A stretch of DNA of 31,562 bases from a virus (lineage: Duplodnaviria; Heunggongvirae; Uroviricota; Caudoviricetes), in the IMG/VR virus record IMGVR_UViG_2645727555_000016, positions 1 to 31,562 of that record. One strand, given 5' to 3'. The translations under genes were made by a program, and so were the position numbers. Of the stretch, positions 24,143-30,428 are shown piece by piece; position 1 is the stretch's first letter; every line of letters starts with the position of its first letter. The notes beneath the pieces were generated by a model that saw only the letters and a program-made list of their open reading frames with translations, was not told where the DNA came from and ran no database searches.

Positions 24143-25465
24143 ATGGAAAAACTGATCGCCCTAAAGCACAAGCTGGATGCCATAAAAACGATGGGAACCA
24201 ACGCCAAAAAAGAGGCGCTGGCCAACCTTGATGAATTTGAGCAGAGCATGGTCTCGCTAATGCTCAACCCATTCATTCGATTCGGTGTGAAGAAGTACAA
24301 AGTGGTCGAGCCACTCGATACTTCCGTACCCATCGACCAGAAGGTAGTCGAGCTGCTGGAGAAGCTGGCGGCGCGCGAACTGACCGGGAACGCGGCCATT
24401 ACTGCTGTCGAATCACTCGTTGCCTCAATGTGCGCTGACGGGCAGGACGTGTTTCGTCGCTTCCTGCTGAAAGATCCGAAAGCCGGCGTCGGCATCAGCC
24501 TGTGCAACAAGGTGTTCGAAAACCCAATTCCGAAGTTTGAGGTACAGCTGGCGTCTCCGTACAAGGAGAAAGGCGACAAATACCCATTTAAACCAAATCC
24601 AAAGGCCAAGTGGCCAATGATCGGCAGCCTCAAACTCGATGGTCTCCGGGTTATCTGCGAAGTCATCGTTGACGAGGAAGAGGTGAACTTCCTGACGCGT
24701 ACCGGAAATCCGATTACGTCACTCGATCACCTTAAACCGGCCATGCTGGAGCGAGGCAGACTCTCCGGGTTCAAGCACATCTTCTTCGATGGTGAGGGTA
24801 CTGCAGGTACGTTCAACCAGTCCGTATCGGCGCTTCGCAAGAAGAACGTGAAAGCCATTGGTGCCGTTTACCACATCTTCGATTTCTTCTTACCGGAATG
24901 GCGTGCTCAGGCAAAAAGCAAAGAGTACCTGAAGACCGGCATGAAGCTGAAAGAGCGCCTGGCTATGCTGGTGGCGTTGTTCCGCAACACTTGCGGGGAA
25001 GATTACGCGCAAGATATCCACCTGCATCCGTTCTACATCATCCATAGCCATGGAGACTTTATCGAACGCTTCATGAAGCGCCTGGACGAGAACGAAGAGG
25101 GGGAGATGGGCAAAGATCCGGATTCTGTTTACGAGTTTAAACGTACCCGCAGCTGGTGGAAGTTAAAAGACGAAGATTCAGAAGATGGTGAAATTATCGA
25201 CTTTGAGCCGGGCGACCCGGACTCTGGTTTTGCCAACACGCTTGGAAAAATTGTTATTCGTCTTGAAAACGGCGTCATCGTGCGTGCGAGCGGCATTAAG
25301 CATAAATATCTGGACGAGATCTGGAACAACAAAGAGAAGTACCGTGGTCGTATTGTTGAGGTTCATTGTCACGAGAAAACACCGGACGGCAGCTTACGCC
25401 ACCCACGACTGAAATGGCCGCGTTGCTTACGCGATACAGAAGATCGAATCGGAGATAAAGAATGA
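24143..25465 (+). CDS. ATP-dependent DNA ligase
   Basis: Adenylation motif I KxDGxR present as SLKLDGLRV; 440 aa; location in the replication module. Confidence 0.6.
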   Translation: MEKLIALKHKLDAIKTMGTNAKKEALANLDEFEQSMVSLMLNPFIRFGVKKYKVVEPLDTSVPIDQKVVELLEKLAARELTGNAAITAVESLVASMCADGQDVFRRFLLKDPKAGVGISLCNKVFENPIPKFEVQLASPYKEKGDKYPFKPNPKAKWPMIGSLKLDGLRVICEVIVDEEEVNFLTRTGNPITSLDHLKPAMLERGRLSGFKHIFFDGEGTAGTFNQSVSALRKKNVKAIGAVYHIFDFFLPEWRAQAKSKEYLKTGMKLKERLAMLVALFRNTCGEDYAQDIHLHPFYIIHSHGDFIERFMKRLDENEEGEMGKDPDSVYEFKRTRSWWKLKDEDSEDGEIIDFEPGDPDSGFANTLGKIVIRLENGVIVRASGIKHKYLDEIWNNKEKYRGRIVEVHCHEKTPDGSLRHPRLKWPRCLRDTEDRIGDKE

Positions 25466-26285: not shown

Positions 26286-26307
26286 GATAAGTATTTACTT
26301 ACTTATC
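26286..26307. promoter_or_regulatory. Perfect palindrome GATAAGTA-TT-TACTTACTTATC built from the same GATAAGTAAGTA unit as the recurring motif; operator-like
   Basis: The right arm is the reverse complement of GATAAGTAAGTA; lies at the start of a gene-free structured region upstream of the tRNA cluster. Confidence 0.45.
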
Positions 26308-26666
26308 TTTTATGTATAAGATGACTTTGTTTTCGTTGAGACGCGACTGTTTGAACTTAAATACAAGTGCAAACGAAGAAGTCTATCTGGCAGTAGCCTA
26401 ATAAGCCAAACACCAGCGAGGTCAGTTTCCAGCCTCGTTACCGAAATGGGACACACTGAGCGAGTGTGATTGCAGAACGCAGGAGGGAACATTCATGTTC
26501 CCTCTGATGAAGTAACAGAATGGGCGGTCGTTATATTTTCAACTCAATATGACTCCCGGATTCTTAGCCACTGACCGCCCATCCTGTTACGTCATTTTGT
26601 TCAATTATGTCGTTTATACTGGGTTAAAAAGCGGCGGCGTAGCCCGGCTGGTATGGTTAGCCAGCA

Positions 26667-26788
26667 CACAACGTTGAGGCCATTACATTTTTATCAATTC
26701 TAAGGTTCTATTCACAGAGATACCGGCGAGCGTTGATATGTAACATGTTGGGCAAACATTCAATCGGAGTAGTGGCCTCAACGTTGTG
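26667..26788. repeat. Hairpin element A: 16-bp perfect inverted repeat (CACAACGTTGAGGCCA / TGGCCTCAACGTTGTG) flanking about 90 nt
   Basis: Arms 26667..26682 and 26773..26788 are exact reverse complements; arms share CTCAAC..TTGTG with elements B and C. Confidence 0.6.
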
Positions 26789-27052
26789 AAGACAGGATTG
26801 TTGTGTAGGTTTAACCACTGTTGCCATTGGTGCCTGTTTTCACAACAAATGATTCCATACATCACATTGTATAAATTACAAAGTAGGTGCTGTCCTCAGA
26901 AACATCATCTACTTAAAGATTTTGCCTTCTATTGAGCGAAGTCGAAAACGTCTGGCACTAACGAAAAGTGCAAGTAGCGGTGCGTTTATTGGCAAAAACT
27001 AACACCGCCGCGATTGGCACTGTTGAGTAATAAATACTGGCAGTGCTGAATT

Positions 27053-27127
27053 GATGGTGTAGCTCAGCGGTAGAGCAGTTGGCTGTTAACCAACTGGTCG
27101 GTGGTTCGAATCCACCCACCATCGCCA
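27053..27127 (+). tRNA. tRNA-Asn (anticodon GTT)
   Basis: Manual fold: acceptor GATGGTG/CACCATC, D-stem GCTC/GAGC, anticodon stem GTTGG/CCAAC with loop CTGTTAA, T-arm GGTGG-TTCGAAT-CCACC, discriminator G, encoded CCA. Confidence 0.75.
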
Positions 27128-27132
27128 ATTTA

Positions 27133-27219
27133 GGGGAGTTAGTCCGTAGAGGTAGCGGTGTAGACTGTAAATCTACTGTCATGGCGACTCGGGTGGTTCG
27201 ACTCCATCACTCCCCACCA
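27133..27219 (+). tRNA. tRNA-Tyr (anticodon GTA), class II with long variable arm
   Basis: Acceptor GGGGAGT/ACTCCCC, anticodon stem GTAGA/TCTAC with loop CTGTAAA, variable arm with GTC/GAC stem, T-arm GGTGG-TTCGACT-CCATC, encoded CCA; D-arm is non-canonical. Confidence 0.55.
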
Positions 27220-27223
27220 AATT

Positions 27224-27299
27224 GCCGGTTTAGCTCAGTTGGTAGAGCAGTCGCTTTGTAAGCGAATGGCCAGCGGTTCAAGTCCGTTAACCGGCACCA
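27224..27299 (+). tRNA. tRNA-Thr (anticodon TGT)
   Basis: Acceptor GCCGGTT/AACCGGC, D-stem GCTC/GAGC, anticodon stem GTCGC/GCGAA (one mismatch) with loop TTTGTAA, T-arm AGCGG-TTCAAGT-CCGTT, encoded CCA. Confidence 0.7.
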
Positions 27300-27304
27300 A
27301 CATA

Positions 27305-27395
27305 ATATTGAGAACATTGGCGTAACGGGGTCATATCCCAATCTATGAATAAATGTTGCGTTGCCGCGTGACAACCAGTGTTCTCAACATTGTGG
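27305..27395. repeat. Hairpin element B: imperfect inverted repeat (ATATTGAGAACATTGG / CCAGTGTTCTCAACATT) between tRNA-Thr and tRNA-Ser
   Basis: Two mismatches in a 16-17-bp repeat; shares the CTCAAC..TTGTG arm signature with elements A and C. Confidence 0.5.
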
Positions 27396-27494
27396 TGAAT
27401 GCACAGGCTGATGTGCCGCAACTACAGTAGTGCGCGCTTTGCGGGGCTTGCTACAACCCTGTGTCGGAGATCAGCACCGACCACCACAATCACT

Positions 27495-27581
27495 GGAGAG
27501 TAGGGAGCATGGTGCTCAAGCGGTCTTGAAAACCGTCCCATTGCGCAAGCGATGATGGTTCGATTCCATTACTCTCCGCCA
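27495..27581 (+). tRNA. tRNA-Ser (anticodon TGA), class II with long variable arm
   Basis: Acceptor GGAGAGT/ACTCTCC, anticodon stem GCGGT/ACCGT with loop CTTGAAA, long variable arm, T-arm GATGG-TTCGATT-CCATT, discriminator G, encoded CCA; D-arm slightly irregular. Confidence 0.55.
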
Positions 27582-27584
27582 GAC

Positions 27585-27660
27585 ACAGCGTTGAGCGGTT
27601 TGGCCTTTTAATCACCCAGATTAAGACTCCGCTAACATAAACCAGACCGCTCAACGCTGT
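27585..27660. repeat. Hairpin element C: 16-bp perfect inverted repeat (CACAGCGTTGAGCGGT / ACCGCTCAACGCTGTG) immediately 3' of tRNA-Ser
   Basis: Arms 27585..27600 and 27645..27660 are exact reverse complements; same arm signature as elements A and B. Confidence 0.6.
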
Positions 27661-27735
27661 GATAGACAATTACGGCAGACGTTCTTAACCATAGCTTGCT
27701 AACATCCTAGCAACACTTTTTTCAGCGCAAAATTC

Positions 27736-27758
27736 AAAGGGGCTTCGGCCCCTTTTTT
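27736..27758 (+). terminator. Rho-independent terminator (GGGGC-TTCG-GCCCC followed by TTTTTT), likely ending the tRNA transcription unit; A-tract upstream may allow bidirectional use
   Basis: Perfect GC stem with tetraloop and 6-T tract read directly. Confidence 0.7.
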
Positions 27759-28454: not shown

Positions 28455-28982
28455 TTGTTTAACACTGCGAGGTTAAATGTGAGTAACAGAGATGATTTTT
28501 CCCCATCGGTGAAGCGAACACTAGCCGAACGCGTAGGCTGGAAGTGCTCTTATCCTAGCTGCAACCAGACAACTGTAGGTCCAGATAGCAGCAATACAAA
28601 CGGCAGGATTAATAATGGTATTGCGGCCCATATTACAGCAGCAGCGCCAGGTGGACCGAGATATGATCATAGCTTAACCCCAGAACAGCGAAGCTCGATT
28701 GATAACGGTATATGGATGTGTCGTTCACATGCCGCACTCATTGATTCTGACAAATATGCCTATTCCGTTGAGCAATTAAAAAACTGGAAGACACTGGCCG
28801 AAACTCAGCAATCTTTACTGCTTCAAATGGCGCACCAGGTGAGCCAGAATAATTACTCAGAAAGAGACGTCGATGTTCTAAAAGCTATTACTGATATTTT
28901 TAATTATAACTACCTCCAAATGCTGAAGAGCGAACCGTTCCGGGCAAAAGGTTCATGGTTAACCAACTGGTCAACCCTCTAA
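28455..28982 (+). CDS. HNH/His-Me-finger-like protein candidate (start uncertain; ORF track start is TTG)
   Basis: Cys pair CSYPSC, then AAHITAA and NGIWMCRSHAALID, resembling a C-x-C...H...N...H nuclease arrangement; 3' end overlaps the recombinase ORF. Confidence 0.3.
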   Translation: MFNTARLNVSNRDDFSPSVKRTLAERVGWKCSYPSCNQTTVGPDSSNTNGRINNGIAAHITAAAPGGPRYDHSLTPEQRSSIDNGIWMCRSHAALIDSDKYAYSVEQLKNWKTLAETQQSLLLQMAHQVSQNNYSERDVDVLKAITDIFNYNYLQMLKSEPFRAKGSWLTNWSTL

Positions 28983-29797
28983 TATTGGATGGCAAAATTG
29001 TTATGGGCCGCCGCGTTTTCTCTCTGATGAAGCAGTTCCTTAGCTGGTGCGCCTTCCAGGGGATGATAGACGTGTCACCGTTAAACGATATGTCACTAAA
29101 CAAAGTTGCCGGTGGCGCAAAGCCCACACCTCGCGAGCGGAAGCTGACCGACGCAGAGGTATGGGTGTTCTGGAATATATGGGACTACTTCAATGTGTGC
29201 GCTGGTACAAAATGGGCGGCCAGGCTGTGTCTTGTATCAGCAAGACGACCTGACGAAGTACTGCGGGCTAAAAAAAGTGAGTTCAATCTTAAGCGTGGGG
29301 TTTGGAATCAAGGCAAAAGAAACAAGTCAGCACGTGAGCATTCGCTGCCTTTAAGCACATTAATGCGCACATGCATTGAAGAGTTGTTCGAATACGGTAA
29401 AGACAGCCAGTGGCTCGTGCCTTCGAATAAAAAAATCGGGAAAGACCTTCCTATGTCTAAAGTGGCAATATCCCAGGCATTACGTCGTATTCTGGAACGA
29501 CCAGAACTGATGGAGCTTGAGCCATTTACACCCCGAGATTTGCGCCGTACTGCGCGTAGTTACTTCCCAGCATTAGGCATAAGCCAGGAGGTATCACGCA
29601 AAATTATGAACCACAGTCTTGAGGGGATAGATCGGGTCTACGACCGGCACGATTATATGGACGAGATGCGAGACGCCTTAGAAAGTTTCTCGACGTACAT
29701 CGCATCAATCGTAGAGCAACCGGATTTAGACGAAATTGACCACAAATTCAAGGGAGATCGTCTATCAACAGAGCTTATTCGTGTAAATTTTTCATAG
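28955..29797 (+). pseudogene. P4-type tyrosine recombinase/integrase, N-terminally truncated (catalytic domain only); probable remnant
   Basis: C-terminal signature PFTPRDLRRTARSY...IMNHSLEGIDRVYDRHDY resembles P4-family integrase boxes (R...HxLRRT...H...Y), but Arg replaces the usual His in HDLRR and the roughly 100-150-aa N-terminal arm-binding region is absent. Confidence 0.55.
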
Positions 29798-30223: not shown

Positions 30224-30428
30224 GATATTACATCAAAGGTTAGGGTTGTAAAGCTATTATCATTTTTTCGGCAGGCACTTGTAAGACCGAGCAAAGGTCC
30301 ATGCATGGAGAAAAACTAGCCCAAAATAGGTAAGAAAATTAACTTGCATCTGATATAGATGCATTCAGTATTGATACAAATTTTAGTAGTATTCCTTACC
30401 ATAGTATAAGTTAGAATGGATTGATTGA

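Follow-up and report, generated by a model that had tools for sequence, protein, structure and literature searches.

Three inverted repeats interleaved with the tRNA genes of an SSU5-like phage-plasmid, elements A, B and C, belong to a large, conserved and apparently unnamed family of hairpins with 20–24-bp stems, and the pairing of these stems is under selection. The window that we analyzed, the whole 31,562-nt stretch of DNA, contains a non-coding stretch of about 1.4 kb that is organized as a dense structured operon of hairpins, closed modules and tRNAs. On sequence grounds, we give about an even chance to the reading that A, B and C act as RNase III-type punctuation or processing hairpins of a polycistronic transcript carrying tRNAs and small RNAs.

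ARAGORN and Rfam both placed tRNA-Asn(GTT) at 27053–27127, tRNA-Tyr(GTA) at 27133–27219 and tRNA-Thr(TGT) at 27224–27299, all on the + strand, and ARAGORN placed tRNA-Ser(TGA) at 27495–27581 (+), for which the top Rfam model was tRNA-Sec with 44.6 bits, under its gathering score of 47. The Asn–Tyr–Thr block (27053–27299) is 96% identical to a block in a P1-like Punavirus phage. ARAGORN found only these four tRNAs in the window, and neither the window nor any of 13 related loci gave a tmRNA. A terminator-like hairpin, GGGGC-TTCG-GCCCC followed by six Ts (27739–27758, +), was not listed by the terminator scan and was identified by eye; relatives are conserved up to this hairpin and diverge beyond it, and the non-coding transcription unit probably ends here. 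The promoter scan returned no convincing candidate.

An earlier note on this DNA had described A, B and C as inverted repeats with a common arm signature, and our inverted-repeat search of the window located the arms of all three. Element A (26667–26788, +) lies before the tRNA cluster and has a 20–23-bp stem, CACAACGTTGAGGCCATTAC / GTAGTGGCCTCAACGTTGTG, enclosing about 80 nt; the search returned 20-nt arms at 26667–26686 and 26769–26788 (95%). Element B (27298–27397, +) extends from the 3′ end of tRNA-Thr as a hairpin with 23-nt arms at 27298–27320 and 27375–27397 (83%), and contains two small hairpins in its interior. Element C (27584–27661, +) begins 2 nt past the CCA of tRNA-Ser and has a 20–24-bp stem, CACAGCGTTGAGCGGTTTGG / CCAGACCGCTCAACGCTGTG, with 38 nt enclosed and 20-nt arms at 27584–27603 and 27642–27661 (95%). 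The placement given in the earlier note thus holds, as does its account of arm quality, the outer 16 bp being perfect in A and C and interrupted by mismatches in B. The three stems comprise 21–23 pairs and have CACAAC…GTTGTG ends in common. Within the whole window, we found only seven inverted repeats whose arms measure 16 nt or more and lie within 150 nt of each other (seed 10), and three of the seven fall in one 1.2-kb stretch: A, C and a hairpin at 26507–26595. B was missed at seed 10 and found with a shorter seed. The arm signature CTCAACGTTGTG, with up to two mismatches, occurs nine times in the window against 2.5 ± 1.5 times in shuffled sequence, and none of 100 shuffles reached nine; seven of the nine are arms of A, B or C.

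The hairpin at 26507–26595 is part of a fourth, more divergent paralogue, H0 (26506–26596, +), which the earlier note overlooked together with the modules that follow A and B. The 23–25-nt arms of H0, GATGAAGTAACAGAATGGGCGGTCG / TGACCGCCCATCCTGTTACGTCATT, are 91% complementary and follow the pattern CAyAAC-A-GG of a subfamily seen upstream of tRNAs in P1-like phages and D6; analogues lie at 1587–1681 of locus L011 and 1351–1437 of locus L014. The module after A (26783–26846, +) is closed by GUUGUGAAGACAGG / CCUGUUUUCACAAC (14-nt arms, 93%), with a 5′ strand that runs into the 3′ arm of A, where GTTGTGA has a TCACAAC partner 50 nt downstream; SSU5 (L015) has the same hairpin-plus-module arrangement. 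The module after B, S1 (27389–27490, +), is closed by AUUGUGGUG (27389–27397) and CACCACAAU (27482–27490) and holds two hairpins, GCACAGGCUGAUGUGC and UCGGAGAUCAGCACCGA, with complementary loops. It is of the same type as an STnc100-like unit of relatives, of which the L005 variant scored 42.6 bits (E about 1e-7) against Rfam STnc100, below the gathering score of 47; S1 itself had no Rfam match in the window scan. In the search for antisense targets within the window, a marginal 14-nt match of S1 to the ligase gene was the one exception to scores at the level of shuffles.

Membership in the family was established with a covariance model, R1, computed from 39 hairpins taken from lambdoid prophages, P1-like phages and D6 and excluding the sequences of the window. 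The three best matches of R1 in the 31.5 kb are A (29.5 bits, E 7e-7), B (28.4 bits, E 1.6e-6) and C (24.8 bits, E 1.9e-5), all on the + strand, the strand of the tRNAs, which always outscored the − strand (21.9, 11.2 and 15.7 bits, respectively). H0 (26510–26592) scored only 12–14 bits (E 0.02–0.09), and its membership is therefore probable rather than firm. R1 finds 119 sites in 75 sources, including one in phage lambda (44786–44863, 66 bits) that lies directly after tR′ in the Q-dependent late leader and is the sole long regular helix seen there. The initial IMG/VR pattern, TTGAG…CTCAAYRYTGTG, was too loose, chance matches making up most of 120 loci, and the matches were filtered by stem pairing. 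We found no clear family member in the cryptic prophages DLP12 and Qin of K-12 (MG1655).

The family stem consists of a basal CAYAAC/GUUGUG helix and an inner stem, and its length stays at about 19–25 bp despite sequence change. A conserved bulged A and a U·U mismatch characterize the lambdoid subfamily, while the window elements represent a perfect-stem subtype (GTTGAG/CTCAAC) that lacks the bulged A. Hairpins start 1–2 nt past a tRNA CCA, or about 6 nt past the tR′ terminator in lambdoid phages, and extend to the start of the following tRNA or tRNA-sized module, such that the gaps between structured RNAs are filled almost exactly; in some phages, a tRNA-Arg or tRNA-Gly starts immediately 3′ of GTTGTG. 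In 120 loci with family members, every neighboring tRNA is on the strand of the hairpin. Orthologues of A with compensatory changes are found in SSU5 (GAGGTCACTG / CAGTGGCCTC) and IMG/VR locus L034 (GAGACCACTGG / CCAGTGGTCTC), and the L034 orthologue of C has an unchanged stem and a different interior that retains AAGACTCCGC. B recurs at about 97% identity in some 480 genomes of E. coli, chiefly in P1-like phage-plasmids, and has a counterpart with a perfect stem (23/23) in phage D6; it is not present in phage Cyrano. The Rfam gathering scan of the window gave tRNAs only, a scan at E ≤ 10 showed no meaningful match to A, B or C among the known families (STnc100, C4, YrlA, tRNA and ribozymes included), and neither ARAGORN nor Rfam saw a tRNA cloverleaf in the three. 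The hairpin is in neither Rfam nor RefSeq annotation, and our literature search (pHCM2, the lambdoid late region, StxS/AgvB/AsxR, and RNase III with lambda) turned up no account of it and led only to a 1988 citation discussed below. We likewise know of no Rfam family for phage T4 stable RNAs species 1 and 2.

The earlier note had proposed a test for covariation, and the signal is strong: compensatory changes are present at 15 of 20 stem pairs. In a diverse set of 32 stems, 95.3% of the cells are paired and both sides have changed at those 15 pairs, giving 77 compensatory cells; none of 500 shuffles paired as well, and slid alignments were 33–54% paired. G·U outnumbers A·C by 103 to 19 among 70 unique stems and by 41 to 13 in the diverse set, and one stem position spans the full series C–G, U·G and U–A. 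The excess of wobble pairs over A·C points to RNA made from the + strand; G·T is the least destabilizing mismatch in single-stranded DNA too, and the strand bias does not therefore strictly exclude a DNA hairpin. Among the three options raised in the earlier note, that of processing signals is backed, as structured RNA on the tRNA strand, by the stem covariation, the excess of G·U over A·C, the constant orientation with respect to tRNAs and the tight abutment to both the 3′ and the 5′ ends of tRNAs, whereas that of a miniature mobile element is not upheld.

The GUUGUGN strand of the hairpin pairs and covaries not only with its own stem but also with an NCACAAC further downstream, by which the next module is closed, and the full hairpin may thus be one of two alternative folds. 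A conformational switch, in which GUUGUGN pairs with either the upstream CAYAAC or the downstream NCACAAC and controls maturation of a tRNA-like RNA or of a late transcript, seems to us quite unlikely. Covariation between the seventh nucleotide and the downstream partner covers all four combinations, and internal changes are matched as well (GTTGCGG/CCGCAAC, ATTGTGG/CCACAAT, GCTGTGT/ACACAGC and GGTGTGA/TCACACC); in the window, the strands CAUAAU, AUUGUGG and CCACAAU are mutually compatible, and in lambda the folds are nearly iso-energetic, the MFE structure using the downstream closure and the centroid the full hairpin. On the other hand, GCTGTGA of C has no downstream partner, none is needed where a true tRNA follows the hairpin, the two helices may just be stacked next to each other at a cost to the hairpin of no more than its six basal pairs, and no ligand or signal is apparent.

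The same seventh-nucleotide covariation bears on readings at the DNA level, that is, integron attC-like recombination sites or MITEs inserting beside tRNA genes, which we consider very unlikely. Integron attC sites are likewise imperfect palindromes, of 60–140 bp, with AAC…GTT ends and variable centers in cassette-like arrays; the elements of 76–122 bp fall within that range, and their CACAAC / GTTGTG ends resemble the cores RYYYAAC / GTTRRRY, although ACACAAC / GTTGTGA keep AAC and GTT and depart from the consensus elsewhere. The stems of A and C, however, are perfect over 16 bp without an unpaired spacer, and A–C have no extrahelical bases. The seventh-nucleotide covariation spans the cargo and not the hairpin, which fits an RNA stem rather than attC, and the wobble bias points the same way. 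A tyrosine recombinase gene lies nearby (28955–29797), within a variable segment that has matches in about 3000 plasmid records, over half of which are conjugative, but the product of the gene is under the cut-off for every NCBIfam model, integron integrase included, and the window has no integron integrase; moreover, the hairpin family is common to lambda, P1-like phages and D6, whose recombinases are unrelated. We rejected attC on the perfect stems, the lack of IntI, the covariation across the cargo and the wobble bias fitting RNA.

Some observations around B speak for a DNA element. The Thr–Ser spacer ranges from 8 to 668 nt among relatives of about 97% identity, via gain and loss of units, and the empty site of Cyrano is a single CACAAT where B and S1 of the window are flanked by CATAAT and CACAAT. 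The boundaries of presence and absence nevertheless fall inside a conserved motif, and the search for target-site duplications that the earlier note had suggested gave none around A (CCAGCA|..|AAGACA), B (CACCAA|..|AATGCA) or C (GCCAGA|..|ATAGAC). With the interiors of A, B and C mutually unrelated, and at least 35 unrelated classes elsewhere, MITEs were rejected. No interiors were found in inverted orientation, and invertible segments were rejected too.

The interiors are the variable part of the family. A set of 120 loci comprises 86 unique hairpins, whose stems are nearly identical and whose interiors fall into 35 or more unrelated classes; in 65 locus pairs both 100-nt flanks are at least 90% identical and the interiors unrelated, and in 259 pairs the interiors are similar and the contexts different. 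The idea of mobility in the earlier note is thus not wholly wrong, since cassette-like exchange between phages, of interiors and of whole hairpin-plus-module units, is real; it occurs without target-site duplications, and its mechanism is probably recombination via the conserved stems. Such turnover under invariant stems suggests that the interior is selected cargo, not neutral filler, and raises a possible, if minority, reading in which the hairpin is a small-RNA scaffold, the stem serving excision and stabilization and the function residing in the hypervariable 30–90-nt interior as an antisense RNA, a sponge or a decoy of host RNA-targeting defenses. Such a design would be similar to that of a pri-miRNA or of the tRNA-linked pre-miRNAs of murine gammaherpesvirus 68. 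Consistent with this, the B interior is conserved at 97% between unrelated families of phage-plasmids and its hairpins show a U·G to C–G change, a tRNA T-loop-like GTTCGAxTC is present in 13 of 86 interiors, and the adjoining modules are related to the Hfq-binding sRNAs STnc100 and PasD. The interiors of A, B, C and H0, however, show complementarity to the rest of the window no better than shuffles, interiors have no motif or structure in common, and their variability could equally reflect an unconstrained sequence. A broader and more speculative form of the idea, which we hold to be rather improbable, is that the 20-bp stem is a portable scaffold for expression and exchange, with which enterobacterial temperate phages (lambdoid, P1-like, D6 and SSU5-like) display and trade hypervariable RNAs of about 40–90 nt; placed beside tRNAs, tRNA-like modules and a tmRNA-tag-like module, these would together form an arms-race locus of RNA mimics or decoys, cut up by host tRNA-processing enzymes and RNase III.

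The reading that we favor is RNase III punctuation. A, B and C, and probably H0, would lie within one long non-coding + strand transcript, which includes the four tRNAs together with several modules of small structured RNA and is terminated near 27750. Each element is predicted to fold as a 20–24-bp RNA helix with a conserved base, CAYAAC:GUUGUG, and an apical part free to vary. Host RNase III would cut the two-turn helix, freeing the 3′ end of the upstream tRNA for trimming and detaching the downstream module, and the ends would be finished by RNase P and other enzymes. A stem of about 19–25 bp is the classical size of an RNase III substrate, and A, B and C have the corresponding geometry (regular double-stranded RNA of about two turns, at least 20 bp); the enzyme and the consequences of cleavage are inferred. 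The conservation of the stem base and the lambdoid bulged A and U·U mismatch exceed the known needs of RNase III, a hint that a further, specific partner is involved. Annotation of phage tRNA clusters usually stops at the tRNA genes themselves. The hairpin spans lambda, P1-like phages, D6 and SSU5-like phage-plasmids, which are very common in E. coli, Klebsiella and Salmonella. Should the hairpins be RNase III signals, the release of phage tRNAs and of prophage sRNAs such as STnc100/PasD from long read-through transcripts would be explained. The invariant stems with freely swapped interiors also offer a testable case of modular non-coding RNA exchange between unrelated phages.

Several known systems share parts of this design. 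The RNase III sites of T7 (R0.3–R18.5) and the stems flanking rRNAs are likewise stem-loops of about two turns between units of a polycistronic transcript, where cutting frees the units from one another and leaves protective stubs behind; the T7 sites contain small internal loops but lack a large variable insert at the apex, whereas the family described here combines a conserved base with interchangeable 30–90-nt interiors. Enterobacterial 23S rRNA intervening sequences, which are excised by RNase III and not re-ligated, similarly join a conserved helix to a variable, sporadic and horizontally exchanged apical insert, but are located inside rRNA helices and not between tRNAs and small RNAs. 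In murine gammaherpesvirus 68, a long pre-miRNA hairpin directly follows a tRNA or tRNA-like structure and tRNA-processing enzymes set the end of the hairpin; this is an analogy of design without homology, in a eukaryotic virus using RNase Z and Dicer. Among bacterial small RNAs, the module that follows the hairpins in relatives resembles STnc100 (RF02076) and PasD, prophage sRNAs whose niche is downstream of pR′ in lambdoid prophages (bioRxiv 10.64898/2026.05.13.724894), while A, B and C match no Rfam family and S1 goes undetected by Rfam. Lambda itself carries a family member in its late leader, and a 1988 paper, cited as ref. 49 in PMC7547250, reports in vivo processing of its Q-dependent late RNA by RNase III, at sites that may coincide with this hairpin (Daniels, Subbarao, Blattner and Lozeron, Virology 167:568, 1988; PMID 2849240); the window elements, in contrast, belong to the tRNA operon of a phage-plasmid rather than to a late mRNA leader.

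The three inverted repeats that the earlier note had placed among the tRNA genes were recovered by an inverted-repeat search, all on the + strand: A with 20-nt arms (95%) at 26667–26686 and 26769–26788, B with 23-nt arms (83%) at 27298–27320 and 27375–27397, and C with 20-nt arms (95%) at 27584–27603 and 27642–27661. ARAGORN placed tRNA-Asn at 27053–27127, tRNA-Tyr at 27133–27219, tRNA-Thr at 27224–27299 and tRNA-Ser(UGA) at 27495–27581; A thus lies ahead of the cluster, B starts at the end of tRNA-Thr and C two bases past tRNA-Ser. Long close inverted repeats are scarce, 3 of the 7 in the 31.5-kb window falling in this region, and the shared arm signature goes beyond chance: allowing up to two mismatches, CTCAACGTTGTG is found nine times in the window vs. 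2.5 ± 1.5 times in shuffles, a count reached by 0 of 100 shuffles. A fourth paralogous hairpin, H0 (26506–26596, 23–25-nt arms by the same search), had been overlooked. It belongs to a sub-type occurring upstream of tRNAs in P1-like phages and D6, while A, B and C form a bulge-free sub-type, CACAAC-GUUGAG.../...CUCAAC-GUUGUG.

The elements occupy a stretch of ~1.5 kb without convincing ORFs, preceded by a + strand gene block (DNA ligase and small ORFs) and closed by a terminator, GGGGC-TTCG-GCCCC-T6, at 27739–27758, beyond which the sequences of relatives part ways. As an SSU5-like phage-plasmid, the window has Escherichia phage CMS-2020a and phage Cyrano as its closest relatives (~97% identity), together with >1000 E. 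coli, Klebsiella and Salmonella plasmid records. The tRNA-Asn/Tyr/Thr block (27053–27299) is 96% identical to a block of a P1-like Punavirus phage and its Asn–Thr part ~80% identical to N4-like phages, and the block itself therefore moves between unrelated phages. tRNA-Ser(UGA), at 27495–27581, is matched better by Rfam's model for selenocysteine tRNA (44.6 bits against a gathering score of 47) than by the one for tRNAs in general, and the annotators of D6 likewise remarked on the odd call for its orthologue. Upstream, a palindrome at 26286–26322, GATAAGTA-TTTACT-TACTTATC, overlaps a weak promoter-like TTTACT-17-TAAGAT that scores under the promoter-scan threshold; it is possibly the promoter and operator of the non-coding operon. 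In the variable segment downstream of the terminator lies a 280-aa tyrosine recombinase (28955–29797; Pfam Phage_integrase, E = 1.8e-10), probably a multimer-resolution enzyme; ~3000 plasmid records match parts of this segment, conjugative plasmids making up over half, and the recombinase has no apparent link with the hairpins.

A ten-codon mini-ORF at 26369–26404 (GCA AAC GAA GAA GTC TAT CTG GCA GTA GCC TAA TAA) encodes ANEEVYLAVA, a peptide resembling the tmRNA (ssrA) tag ANDENYALAA. Equivalent mini-ORFs with at least 10 tag variants (including ANDDLMMVAA, ANDNQYLAVA, ANDEQFLAVA, ANEEMYLAVA and ANEDTYLAVA) are found at the same position in P1-like, D6, SSU5-like and ~40-kb lambdoid contigs, and in the two lambdoid loci read (L143 and L160) family hairpins stand on both sides of it. 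Rfam gave only weak partial tmRNA matches in this region and ARAGORN called no tmRNA; the mini-ORF may be a phage mimic of the tmRNA message lacking a recognisable tRNA-like domain.

The hairpins belong to a much wider family. A stringent IMG/VR search for the more frequent type of stem (pattern ACAGGTAAGRG...CTTWCCGTTG) returned at least 143 instances in at least 120 loci, with at least 86 unique sequences. These stems are nearly invariant, xCAYAAC-A-GGUAAGAGCAUUG ... CAGUGCUCUUUCC-GUUGUGG, with a conserved bulged A, a U·U mismatch and a U·G wobble, and among the matches listed they enclose at least 35 unrelated classes of interior. Many of the listed loci are lambdoid prophages of ~40 kb, with the hairpin placed after pR' and the tR' terminator; in phage lambda we confirmed a member at 44786–44863, where it overlaps the annotated 'orf-64' at its end and lies ~320 nt ahead of gene S, and in E. 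coli lysogens RefSeq has no annotation at this position. A covariance model (R1) was then seeded with 39 hairpins from lambdoid, P1-like, D6 and other SSU5-like genomes, excluding A, B, C and H0 together with all their copies and orthologues, and run on the window with filters off. Its three best matches, all on the + strand, were A (29.5 bits, E = 7e-7; 21.9 bits on the reverse strand), B (28.4 bits, E = 1.6e-6; reverse 11.2 bits) and C (24.8 bits, E = 1.9e-5; reverse 15.7 bits), and H0 matched weakly (26510–26592, 12–14 bits). A further weak match (30321–30405, + strand, 15.1 bits, E = 0.014), AUAGGUAAGAAAAUUA...UAGUAUUCCUUACCAU in AT-rich intergenic sequence, may be a degenerate member or chance.

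Pairing in the stems is under selection. Across 32 diverse stems, A, B, C and H0 among them, 95.3% of cells hold standard pairs, and 15 of the 20 pairs have changed on both sides, with 77 compensatory cells; 0 of 500 shuffles attained any pairing measure, and sliding the partner by 1–3 columns left pairing at only 33–54%. The orthologues of A by themselves display compensatory change: the window has GAGGCCAUUAC/GUAGUGGCCUC, SSU5 has GAGGUCACUG/CAGUGGCCUC and the IMG/VR locus L034 has GAGACCACUGG/CCAGUGGUCUC. Non-Watson–Crick cells on the + strand are mostly G·U, with 103 vs. 19 A·C in 70 unique stems and 41 vs. 13 in the diverse set, and a single position runs through the series C–G, U·G and U–A. 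Among the loci listed, all tRNAs near family members are on the strand of the hairpin. Compensatory pairing, wobble bias and tRNA co-orientation together point to an RNA helix within the transcript that carries the tRNAs; strictly speaking, a hairpin in single-stranded DNA of that strand is still conceivable. That A–C and their relatives are selected RNA structures of one family is close to certain, and the finding is real and broader than the earlier note could show.

Upstream, the hairpins begin 1–2 nt past the tRNA CCA or, in lambdoid phages, ~6 nt past the tR' U-tract. Downstream, either a genuine tRNA starts directly behind GUUGUG (tRNA-Arg in loci L139, L186 and L192, tRNA-Gly in L150) or there is a module whose closing stem takes GUUGUGN as its 5' strand. 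The partner strand lies 40–190 nt downstream and covaries with it: GTTGTGG pairs with CCACAAC, GTTGTGC with GCACAAC (lambda), GTTGTGA with TCACAAC (after A, 26783–26846), GTTGTGT with ACACAAC, GTTGCGG with CCGCAAC, ATTGCGG with CCGCAAT, ATTGTGG with CCACAAT (after B, 27389–27490), GCTGTGT with ACACAGC and GGTGTGA with TCACACC; no such downstream partner was found for C. One strand is therefore shared, or competed for, by the hairpin's six basal pairs and the stem that closes the following module. A rival reading is a switch between the two alternative pairings of GUUGUGN, and in lambda the full-hairpin and downstream-closure folds are nearly iso-energetic. One variant of the following module scores 42.6 bits against Rfam STnc100 (gathering score 47); STnc100 and PasD are prophage sRNAs of the same genomic niche (bioRxiv 10.64898/2026.05.13.724894). 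The module between B and tRNA-Ser, S1 (27389–27490), is of this STnc100-like type, closed by a stem of 9 bp and holding two hairpins with complementary loops, GCUGAU and AUCAGC, which covary with ACUGAU and AUCAGU in other variants; the Rfam scan did not detect it. Over 14 nt, the S1 interior is perfectly antisense to the DNA ligase gene (24493–24506), a match barely above shuffles.

In phage-plasmids with ~97% identical backbones, tRNA-Thr and tRNA-Ser are separated by a spacer (27300–27494 in the window; genomes L001–L010) of 8, 190, 195, 224, 293, 320, 490, 646 or 668 nt. Cyrano has only ACCAA-CACAAT-TGGAGAG and lacks tRNA-Tyr, and the tRNA-Thr anticodon stem differs among relatives. The longer spacers are mosaics of A/B/C-kind hairpins and closed modules, which begin with the hairpin's GTTGTG and finish with CACAAC or CACAAT, and the parts recombine freely, one hairpin preceding differing modules and vice versa. 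B and its module are ~97% identical across ~480 E. coli genomes, most of them 90–100-kb P1-like phage-plasmids carrying the pair in a corresponding array flanked by dmt/tRNA-Thr and ban; D6 also carries B. In IMG/VR, at least 65 locus pairs have both 100-nt flanks ≥90% identical around unrelated interiors and at least 259 resemble each other in their interiors though their flanks differ. Interiors thus act as exchangeable cassettes with breakpoints in the conserved stems; none was inverted among the loci listed. The simplest explanation for this exchange is that co-resident phages recombine homologously, using the conserved 20-nt arms and the tRNA genes they have in common. Integron attC-like DNA elements would be an alternative, as the AAC/GTT ends and size bear a real resemblance and Cyrano's empty site retains a single CACAAT, but this reading fails: the stems are perfect, IntI is absent from the window, members turn up in phages whose recombinases are unrelated, covariation spans the cargo and the wobble bias suits RNA. 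The suggestion of miniature mobile elements was not borne out: target-site duplications were absent from the flanks checked and the interiors are unrelated, two counts on which a transposable-element reading fails. The turnover of interiors would also fit a less likely rival, the stem being a scaffold for a functional RNA in the interior; complementarity of the A, B, C and H0 interiors within the window was no better than chance.

Among the functions proposed earlier, processing signals are best supported. RNase III requires a helix of about two turns, which the constant length of the hairpin helix matches, and given the hairpin's position, cutting it would free the 3' end of the upstream tRNA and detach the downstream unit. 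We give even chances to the hairpins being punctuation signals of a polycistronic tRNA/small-RNA precursor cut by RNase III, inferring which enzyme acts, where it cuts and what becomes of the excised interior; there is a minority chance of something more unusual. The family has no entry in Rfam 15, no RefSeq annotation and no description in the literature searched, and our searches likewise found no earlier account of its occurrence in four groups of phages, of the grammar it forms with tRNAs and STnc100-like modules, or of its invariant stems round exchanged interiors. By kind, the hairpins are stem-loop processing signals in phage transcripts, and so not categorically new. One member resides in lambda, the best-studied phage of all, for which a 1988 paper reports, by its title, RNase III processing sites in the Q-dependent late RNA in vivo (cited in PMC7547250); the lambda hairpin is the obvious candidate for such a site.
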